DNA from: Candidatus Altimarinota bacterium
GTDB taxonomy: Bacteria; Patescibacteriota; Gracilibacteria; UBA1369
DNA: 32,000 nt
Reading direction: 5' to 3'
Assembly (NCBI GenBank): GCA_041659405.1
Contig: JBAZYK010000004.1
Span: forward strand, 1 to 32,000
The translations under genes and the position numbers were made by a program. The notes beneath the pieces were generated by a model. It did not search any database and was not told the DNA's origin. It was given only the letters and a program-made list of their open reading frames with translations. Position 1 is the first letter of the stretch; each line of letters begins with the position of its first letter. Shown here piece by piece: positions 84-699 of this stretch.

Positions 84-699
84 TGTCTAGCGATTTAATT
101 TATTCAAACCAAAAAGCGTATGATCCTTAAAAATGTTGTCTTGCTCGTAGACAAGAAGTGGACACTAAACTAGACACGACTCGCCAAAAATAAAAATTGC
201 GAATGGCGATTGGACGCGGACTCGGCCGTATTTTTTAATTACAAAGTAGACATGCTGGACAAGAAGTAGACATTTGGCTTACAATGGCGGTAGCCAATGT
301 CTATAGTTGTCCATTACGTGTCTATAGACATGTAATAATTTTTCAATGAGTTTGTAATTATGTACGAAATAGATAGAAAAGCCGCTAGCAAACTATTAAA
401 AGTATCTGTAAGGACAGTAGACAGGTACATTGCCAAAAATAAGCTAAAAATATTTAAGCGCGACGGCAGAATTTGGCTTGATAAAAAAGAATTGCAGCGC
501 CTAAAAGGGCACAAAGAAGTAGACAGCGATGTGGACATGTCTACCCCGGCAATGTCTATAGACAGGACCCGTGTAATTCCAGTAGACACGTCTATAGACA
601 ATGACGATACTGTCTATAGTCATGATGCGGAAAACAGTCCTACAATAAGCCAAAAACGTCATAATTACAGAGTAGACAATCGCACGCGCAATGTAGACA
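84..699. repeat. Dense array of TAGACA / TGTCTA half-sites (GTAGACA heptamers; palindrome TGTCTATAGACA)
   Basis: Hand count: TAGACA on + at 149,171,247,267,325,418,520,559,583,595,673,694. TGTCTA at 84,298,319,538,553,611. TGGACA-type variants at 159,256,532 and TGTCCA at 308. Perfect 12-bp palindromes at 319-330 and 553-564. Two similar triple-site blocks at 148-176 and 246-272 have about 10-bp spacing. Confidence 0.9.

Follow-up and report, generated by a model that had tools for sequence, protein, structure and literature searches.

A 32,000-nucleotide (nt) stretch of contig JBAZYK010000004.1, from the Candidatus Altimarinota bacterium assembly GCA_041659405.1, is referred to here as the window. 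Positions 84-699 of the window carry a dense array of the hexamer TAGACA/TGTCTA, which spans the promoter and much of the open reading frame (ORF) of a gene for a helix-turn-helix (HTH) protein. Conservation of the array at this gene extends over 80 species, its intragenic sites are maintained through biased codon choice, and several of its sites coincide with promoter elements. The encoded protein combines a winged HTH domain with a disordered linker, a predicted coiled coil and a putative membrane anchor. The reading that we favour, with belief and doubt evenly balanced, is that the array is both the HTH protein's own operator and a centromere-like loading site, at which a membrane-anchored complex would pin the locus to the membrane.

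A dense TAGACA array at an HTH gene

Counted on both strands, the exact hexamer occurs 21 times in the window, with 18 copies within positions 84-699 and three outside, at starts 4921, 26225 and 30303. The corresponding densities are approximately 29 sites per kilobase (kb) inside the array and 0.1 per kb outside, a difference of approximately 300-fold. One hundred dinucleotide-preserving shuffles of the whole window yielded a mean of 6.4 hexamers and a maximum of 14, and none of them reached 21. The clustering of 18 exact copies, which the initial annotation had reported by hand count, is thereby confirmed, with only three further copies in the other ~31 kb. Eight exact sites precede the ATG at 360 and ten lie within the ORF, in agreement with the earlier estimate of about half on either side. 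The one-mismatch variants (TGGACA/TGTCCA at 159, 256, 308 and 532; GTAGCCA at 290), the two exact 12-bp palindromes TGTCTATAGACA (319-330 and 553-564) and the two similar triple-site blocks with near-helical spacing (9-12 bp) described in the same annotation were all recovered. The components of the array are as follows.

84..330: upstream non-coding half of the array, exact sites starting at 84 (- strand), at 148, 171, 247 and 267 (+ strand), at 298 (-), at 319 (-) and at 325 (+)
159, 256 and 308: TGGACA/TGTCCA variants in the upstream half
148..176, + strand: triple direct-repeat block 1, GTAGACA, 4 nt, GTGGACA, 6 nt, CTAGACA, starts 148/159/171
246..285, + strand: triple block 2, which is also the core promoter, starts 247/256/267 with TGGACA in the middle
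313..336: 24-bp near-palindrome with the halves ATTACGTGTCTA and TAGACATGTAAT, its centre being the exact 12-bp palindrome 319-330
520..699: intragenic half of the array, starts 520, 532 (TGGACA), 538 (-), 553 (-)/559 (palindrome), 583, 595, 611 (-), 673 and 694

The sites of block 1 are spaced by 11 and 12 bp, and TGGACA is its middle site. Nine of the ten intragenic exact sites (starts 520-694) are located in the DNA of the disordered linker. The tenth (418-423) falls within the codons of the recognition helix, RTVDRY, where the V-D-R codons spell GTAGACA at 417-423; 27 of 81 orthologs have this exact heptamer at the same codons, and 35 of 81 have a T[ACG]GACA site there. Between the two triple blocks lies a GC-rich block, GATTGGACGCGGACTCGGCCG (218-238), which is kept in the orthologous locus L004 (as GATAGGACGCGGACTCCGCG) and not in L005.

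To the left of the window only 14 nt of the source contig remain, and all contigs with the exact protein terminate at or within the array region. Because the array starts at -276 relative to the gene in the window and at -271 in L004/L007 (70% identity), the closest ortholog whose upstream flank is complete, and because it fades by about -400 across 80 loci, the window array is probably complete at its left side, as far as sequence comparison can indicate. Three independent assemblies of the source genome (including L002 and L003) break near the array, at window positions of approximately -13, 98 and 180. These breaks suggest strain variation or repeat-induced assembly failure.

Conservation across orthologous loci

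Orthologous loci were taken from GTDB species representatives, giving 80 loci from Peregrinibacteria, Peribacteria and 'Gracilibacteria' metagenome-assembled genomes at 30-70% protein identity. The protein family is lineage-restricted and comprises 438 homologs in a 90%-clustered database, with 451 found at E <= 1e-3 among 1.84 billion 50%-cluster representatives. In most of the 80 loci, the density of TAGACA between -400 and +450 around the gene start is 7-33 per kb, compared with 0-1 per kb in the flanks; the most distant subclades show lower densities. The number of sites per locus has a median of 7 and a maximum of 28. In the pooled histogram, sites rise at -400, peak between -100 and 0 at 2.6 sites per locus per 100 bp, and end at +300. 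Across 1.17 megabases (Mb) of flanking DNA the motif remains at background, with at most 4 sites in any 700-bp window. The comparison of orthologous loci that had been proposed as a check on the array thus came out in its favour, with the array kept at the same gene.

In de novo searches, TAGACA ranked first among hexamers in most loci; TCGACA and TGGACA were its variants. When the two distant subclades with low site counts were each pooled, TAGACA was still the top hexamer (40 vs 2.7 expected, and 14 vs 0.8). A shift of the motif in subclades with divergent wings was considered and rejected, as TAGACA/TGGACA remains the top motif there and only the number of sites falls. On this comparative evidence, the motif is as invariant as the recognition helix, and its copy number is variable.

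Selection on double-stranded DNA

The pooled logo of upstream sites from 81 loci shows a purine at position -1 (A 42%, G 46%), extending the motif to RTAGACA, and approximately 40% of these sites belong to the palindrome TGTCTATAGACA. Across the same loci, neighbouring sites in the same orientation are most often 9-12 bp apart (mode 11), which is about one turn of the helix, and inverted pairs chiefly form the abutting 12-bp palindrome or an 8-bp arrangement, TGTCGACA. The sites are distributed over both orientations, with 210 plus and 175 minus upstream, and 156 plus and 113 minus in coding DNA. Because the two orientations are used about equally, recognition of double-stranded DNA is indicated rather than an RNA or peptide signal.

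Codon choice points in the same direction. Within the first 120 codons, valine-aspartate (VD) is encoded as GTAGAC in 43% of cases, compared with 6.5% in neighbouring genes, and isoleucine-aspartate (ID) as ATAGAC in 37%, compared with 7% in background genes. The VD and ID dipeptides themselves are 4.7-fold enriched, and the tripeptide SID is encoded as TCTATAGAC in 26 of 43 instances, where codon frequencies predict approximately 1%. The examination of synonymous positions in orthologs, also proposed in the initial annotation, therefore revealed codons held far beyond background, and these patterns together indicate that selection acts on the double-stranded DNA.

Architecture of the encoded protein

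The ORF at 360-1052 (+ strand) encodes a protein of 230 residues, which NCBI lists as a hypothetical protein of 'Candidatus Gracilibacteria bacterium'. An AlphaFold2 (AF2) model was built on a 24-sequence alignment, and the following segments were delineated, with model confidence given as the predicted local distance difference test (pLDDT) score.

360..521, + strand: winged HTH domain, codons 1-54, order beta-alpha-alpha-beta-beta-alpha, AF2 pLDDT 88-92, recognition helix SVRTVDRYI
522-698, + strand: disordered linker, residues 55-113, AF2 pLDDT <50, rich in VD, SID and ST
702..983, + strand: long helix, predicted coiled coil, codons 115-208, with the near-invariant motif ERLEGANYRVGQLEA
984..1052, + strand: putative C-terminal hydrophobic tail anchor VYLIILFILLLLQPLWFFFPIK, codons 209-230 and stop, assigned from the sequence

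The model was compared with the PDB using Foldseek. The best match of its N-terminal domain was the RacA-DNA complex 5i44, accompanied by mycobacteriophage Pukovnik Xis (4j2n), GlnR-DNA, BldC-DNA (6ama and 6amk), MerR-family regulators and the DNA-binding domain of pSK1 Par on centromere DNA (8csh), with probabilities of approximately 1 and target TM-scores of 0.6-0.8. Superposition on these solved members places residues 1-54 in the MerR/Xis-type winged HTH fold. When 24 family members were compared with Pfam, 18 matched HTH_17 and 5 matched MerR (PF00376) at E <= 0.01, the best E-value being 1e-4. Searches of PDB profiles and NCBIfam identified no homology of the HTH protein to known families. 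Invariant positions of the domain are R6, K7, R18, T19, D21, R22, R37 and W39, and the recognition helix is conserved as RT[V/I/L]DRY.

Downstream of the linker, the model contains a single helix over residues 115-226 (pLDDT 87-96), of which the last ~20 residues form a hydrophobic tail. Invariant columns of the coiled coil are L145, E146, A148, Y150, R151, G153, L155 and E156. In the tail, Q221 and P222 do not vary and L219, L220, L223 and W224 hardly do, giving a QPLW signature. The tail (LIILFILLLLQPLWFFFPI) is uniformly hydrophobic over approximately 20 residues and not amphipathic, features by which it is identified as a predicted transmembrane tail anchor. Only about 5 residues follow the membrane stretch, and they contain no sensor domain. 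Both the membrane anchor and the coincidence of the intragenic sites with the disordered linker had escaped the initial annotation.

Overlap of the array with the promoter

Triple block 2 contains the best sigma-70-like promoter found by scanning, with a score of 10/12. Its elements are listed below.

256-261, + strand: -35-like hexamer TGGACA
266-272, + strand: site GTAGACA in the spacer
280-285, + strand: -10 box TACAAT, 18 nt after TGGACA

This layout is aligned in L004 and L005. More broadly, the pattern T[AGC]GACA-N16-18-TAnnnT occurs within 200 nt upstream of the gene in 46 of 78 orthologous loci, compared with 0.4% of random windows, and a second site is usually located in the spacer. 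The element at 313-336, which lies between promoter and start codon, keeps its palindromic core at the corresponding position in L004 and L005. This near-palindrome is likely the main operator, situated in the 5′ untranslated region (5′UTR). Its possible role as a terminator hairpin was considered and rejected, as L004 and L005 lack a T-run. Since occupied promoter sites would exclude RNA polymerase, we infer negative autoregulation of the HTH gene.

Comparison with known systems

The closest parallels were found among proteins that position DNA. The centromere of the staphylococcal plasmid pSK1, bound by Par, is a repeat array beside the protein's own gene. RocS, the regulator of chromosome segregation in Streptococcus pneumoniae, joins a MerR-type winged HTH to a coiled coil, a DUF536 domain and an amphipathic membrane helix at its C-terminus, and resembles RacA and Par in structure; RocS and pSK1 Par are single-protein systems proposed to tether DNA to the membrane (PMC11500499). 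In the HTH family, too, an N-terminal MerR-type winged HTH precedes a coiled coil, the C-terminus carries a predicted membrane element, and no ATPase gene is adjacent. Membrane association is thus a feature that the family plausibly shares with RocS and Par, judging from the predicted tail. Several differences separate them, however. The DUF536 domain, with its three conserved glutamines, gave no hit in the window protein or in 24 members. The MinD-like amphipathic helix is replaced in the HTH family by a hydrophobic transmembrane tail with QPLW, a long disordered linker separates the HTH from the coiled coil, and the site array extends into the family's own coding sequence. The known systems come from Firmicutes, whereas the HTH family belongs to Peregrinibacteria, within the candidate phyla radiation (CPR).

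RacA of Bacillus subtilis has a winged HTH, a disordered region and a coiled coil, in the same order as the HTH family, and anchors the chromosome via DivIVA (PMC4914108). It binds repeated centromere-like sites and attaches the chromosome to an envelope-associated anchor (PMC4914108), features that the HTH family would share. In contrast to the HTH protein with its predicted tail anchor, RacA itself lacks a membrane anchor and binds DivIVA instead. The ram sites of RacA are GC-rich 14-bp inverted repeats dispersed over the origin-proximal region, whereas those of the HTH family are AT-rich RTAGACA half-sites of 6-7 bp concentrated within ~620 bp at one locus.

BldC and Xis (6ama, 6amk and 4j2n) share the fold of the HTH domain. 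Proteins of this type cooperatively bind head-to-tail arrays of direct repeats, a mode of binding that fits the 9-12 bp spacing of same-orientation sites. Unlike the HTH protein, they are small and soluble, lack a coiled coil or membrane anchor, and act in transcription or excision. A literature search covering DUF881, Peregrinibacteria HTH proteins and RocS in Patescibacteria retrieved nothing relevant, and no description of the HTH family or its array was found in the searchable literature. On balance, the array system most likely belongs with RocS, RacA and Par as a variant, that is, as a single-protein centromere or anchor.

The same palindrome in other genomes

A motif-first scan, which required two TGTCTATAGACA palindromes separated by 5-35 nt, returned at least 123 stretches from metagenome and viral contigs. 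Among the matches listed, 18 of 123 encode the HTH family, and the array lies on the gene start in all 18. The palindrome alone is neither a unique signature nor an identifier of the binder. Its arrays outside the HTH family had likewise escaped the initial annotation. At least 30 loci derive from a high-GC bacterium with an AT-rich tandem repeat of approximately 63 bp by uvrA and gyrB. At L094 (4790-5300; at least 29 related loci), the intergenic ~63-bp unit holds TTGTCTAT(A/G)GACAATGAG together with ATATATGTAT. Eukaryote-like satellites form another group among the matches listed. At L099 (9790-10190) and L185 (6100-6680), a non-coding field with more than 20 ATAGACA/TGTCTATAGACA sites occurs in a mobile element with an archaeal-type phage integrase and an ORF that appears winged HTH-like by eye; this field looks like an iteron origin.

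Most informative are two further groups, which place the array within the linker of another HTH protein. In at least 6 loci, the array lies wholly in DNA for the linker of an HTH-coiled-coil protein; the N-terminal part of this protein shares 33-42% identity with plasmid 'DUF536 domain-containing' proteins and resembles the pSK1 Par/RocS-type plasmid proteins. An example is L202, with the array at 5980-6171 in the gene 5750-6334 (- strand) and the linker peptide VDKTDNLSIDKNDTLSIDK; L090, L098, L133, L141 and L182 are similar. In another group of at least 6 loci, including three IMG/VR viral contigs, the linker that holds the array belongs to a weakly HTH_36-like protein and precedes a coiled coil. 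These come from high-GC phage: L153 (5277-5383, gene 4766-5923), L105, L177 and the viral L207-L209, with linkers of the form MSID..VSID..SVYRHSGSVSID. The phage arrays may be self-embedded origins or partition sites. Other repeats occur at the linker as well. Plasmid pSRQ700 (L211, gene 1587-2216, annotated DUF536) carries three 33-bp tandem repeats there, encoding TLQNDTAQTAK, and the Enterococcus faecium plasmid p16-021_4 (L210, gene 2998-3516, 'hypothetical') carries GCATACG repeats at the equivalent linker position. Arrays of repeats in linker DNA after an HTH are a recurring design.

A proposed operator and membrane-anchored loading site

We propose the following arrangement. HTH monomers or dimers would recognise the half-site R-T-[A/G/C]-G-A-C-A, organised as direct repeats at intervals of about one helical turn and in inverted pairs, TGTCTATAGACA. 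Binding to the sites in the -35 element and spacer, and to the 5′UTR palindrome, would bring about negative autoregulation. The remaining sites over ~620 bp would nucleate a complex of many protein copies bridged by the coiled coil, and, because every copy would be membrane-anchored, the complex would pin the chromosomal locus to the cytoplasmic membrane. Such a module would be encoded within a neighbourhood of cell-envelope and division genes. The position of sites near and inside the gene may favour cis loading, in which the emerging N-terminal domain binds during coupled transcription and translation. The linker may carry the sites because it tolerates the imposed VD, SID and ST residues.

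The initial annotation had named the adjacent HTH protein as the obvious candidate binder. This suggestion stands up to comparison among genomes, given the conservation in 80 species, the pairing of an invariant motif with an invariant RT[V/I/L]DRY helix, the bent codons and the predicted winged HTH fold.

Several observations weigh against the proposed dual role. The assignment of the binder draws on adjacency, fold and co-conservation only. The Foldseek E-values were only 0.02-0.3, owing to the use of the full-length model as query, and the window protein scored 22.9 bits (E 1e-4) against Pfam HTH_17 (PF12728), under the cut-off of 27. An hhalign comparison of the HTH family with a plasmid DUF536 protein gave a probability of 1.4%, indicating no sequence homology to DUF536, RocS or Par, and a tblastn search of plasmids with the HTH protein found no match. 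Among the matches listed from the motif-first scan, TGTCTATAGACA arrays also adjoin unrelated genes. Some orthologous loci hold just 0-3 exact sites, so a large array is not needed for the function of the family and may be a clade-specific elaboration of a simple operator. The survey for other clusters around the orthologs covered the 1.17 Mb of flanks. Finally, tethering of a single locus is not known to suffice for segregation.

A broader version of the proposal is correspondingly more tentative, and we consider it possible rather than probable. The array and protein would constitute a minimal 'centromere plus kinetochore' module, in which a cis-loaded, tail-anchored protein fastens the locus for segregation or division-site control. 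The linker-embedded arrays would then be a general design, common to this family and to Par/RocS-like plasmid and phage HTH proteins, which share TGTCTATAGACA or use other repeats.

Alternative explanations

The first and main alternative is that the array is an operator and nothing more. The HTH protein would be a membrane-tethered autoregulator, possibly acting also on the divergent SLH-like gene upstream or on the DUF881 genes downstream; the many sites would tune occupancy or block elongation, and anchoring would serve sequestration or release and not the positioning of DNA. We regard this as unlikely, although it deserves serious weight. The sites form the -35 element and spacer site and occupy the 5′UTR in most loci, the distant subclades with approximately 2-5 sites resemble an ordinary operator, and GlnR and MerR-family regulators are among the structural matches. 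Furthermore, the gene upstream of the HTH gene is divergent in L004 and L005, placing the array over a shared promoter region. However, 10-28 sites over 600-700 bp, half of them reaching up to 340 bp into the ORF through forced codons, exceed the needs of repression. A tail anchor without a sensor domain past the membrane is a poor fit to a regulator of this kind, and, among proteins with a coiled coil, those closest in structure and architecture position DNA.

A second alternative, which we consider improbable, assigns the sites to a different binder, such as a global regulator or nucleoid protein, with the HTH gene merely as a regulated target. It gains room from the indirect nature of the link between the HTH protein and the sites, from the use of the palindrome in unrelated contexts, and from the resemblance of TAGACA/TGGACA to the sigma-70 -35 hexamer TTGACA. 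Against it, the 1.17 Mb of flanking DNA contains no other cluster, so a global factor would have a single target nearby, and all 18 Peregrinibacteria-type arrays among the matches listed sit on the HTH gene. Motif and recognition helix are moreover both invariant across 30-70% protein identity.

A third alternative is an iteron-type replication origin inside its initiator gene. In phage lambda, ori-lambda has such a self-embedded layout within O. Similarly, gene 38 of phage SPP1 contains the oriL repeats, to which its product G38P binds (PMC5737612). The HTH locus resembles both in that its protein begins with a DNA-binding domain and the stretch coding for the protein's own linker contains repeats. 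The phage contigs with TGTCTATAGACA arrays in an HTH_36-like gene, as well as the archaeal-type mobile element with its origin-like non-coding ATAGACA field, are also compatible with an origin. The phage origins, in contrast, possess an AT-rich unwinding element and helicase-loader partners, whereas the HTH locus is a core chromosomal one with synteny kept in 80 species, and the C-terminal part of its protein is a predicted coiled coil and transmembrane anchor rather than a helicase-loader-binding domain. Nor did the protein have a plasmid match by tblastn.

Strand asymmetry likewise speaks against an origin. The proximity of the locus to an origin or terminus, which the initial annotation had proposed to assess by GC skew, found no support. 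The cumulative GC skew of the window falls monotonically, and, across 39 loci with at least 8 kb per side, the skew averages -0.081 for the left flank and -0.074 for the right, with the same sign in 31 of 39 and a negative-to-positive switch in 1 of 39. In L004 and L005, the 10 kb around the locus contain no dnaA, dnaN, helicase or loader gene. Without a switch in GC skew, identification of the locus as oriC or a terminus is not supported; an origin would be marked by a strand-asymmetry switch, a DNA-unwinding element and replication partners, and the locus shows neither such a switch nor, in L004 or L005, replication genes nearby. We therefore consider replication initiation at the array very improbable. 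Of the three labels originally offered for the array, operator fits the sites in the -35 element, spacer and 5′UTR, and centromere-like fits a coiled-coil, membrane-anchored protein comparable to RocS, RacA and Par, whereas iteron or origin is not supported.

Lastly, the view that a peptide repeat (VD/SID) or an mRNA-level element is what is maintained, with the upstream copies incidental, is effectively refuted: VD, MSID and VDMSID peptides are indeed conserved in the linker alignment and in-frame sites use almost exclusively one reading frame (a preference that arises because TAG would be a stop in frame 0), but half of the sites are non-coding, neither RNA nor peptide selection explains the nearly equal orientations, and synonymous codons are fixed far beyond background.

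Genomic neighbourhood

The gene order around the array is conserved. A divergent SLH-like envelope gene precedes the HTH gene, which is followed by two DUF881 genes, murI and a PAP2 gene; murB and a Mur ligase gene lie farther upstream in the conserved synteny. The DUF881 pair, convergent with the HTH gene, is also syntenic in L001, L004 and L005.

1169-1840, - strand: first DUF881 gene, Pfam E 3e-25
1843-2577, - strand: second DUF881 gene, Pfam E 4e-31

By context only, the DUF881 membrane proteins are candidate partners of the HTH protein. The pair is flanked by a 77-nt hairpin-forming repeat at 1086-1162 and 2720-2796, with a partial inverted copy at 2656-2682. Its 37-nt core, GAGAGCACCTCGCAGGCGTGAGCCGAGAACTGTGCTC, is the same in both copies, and the outer stems differ by paired changes (GTATAAC/GTTATAC vs GTGTAAT/GTTACAC). 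The repeat matched no Rfam family, and an Rfam search over bases 1-3000 returned spurious hairpin matches only. It could be a small RNA, a terminator pair, or an element resembling repetitive extragenic palindromes or miniature inverted-repeat transposable elements. Farther along the window, at approximately 8440-8935, a small ParE-toxin gene and an upstream ORF of 81 residues lie between guaA and an aspartate kinase gene, according to the gene calls of L001; the two are likely a toxin-antitoxin pair.

Implications for chromosome organisation in Patescibacteria

Chromosome organisation and segregation in the ultra-small cells of CPR/Patescibacteria are essentially unknown. For RocS and pSK1 Par, how one DNA-binding protein drives partition by tethering is still an open question (PMC11500499). 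The HTH family offers a clean test case, combining a compact conserved array, what is predicted to be a true transmembrane anchor, and no accessory ATPase gene nearby. It also represents an unusually clear instance of dual coding, in which the VD, SID and ST residues of a linker, together with their synonymous codons, are dictated by the putative binding sites of the encoded protein. That HTH-coiled-coil genes of plasmids and phages show this layout again suggests a general principle, one missed by annotation pipelines.

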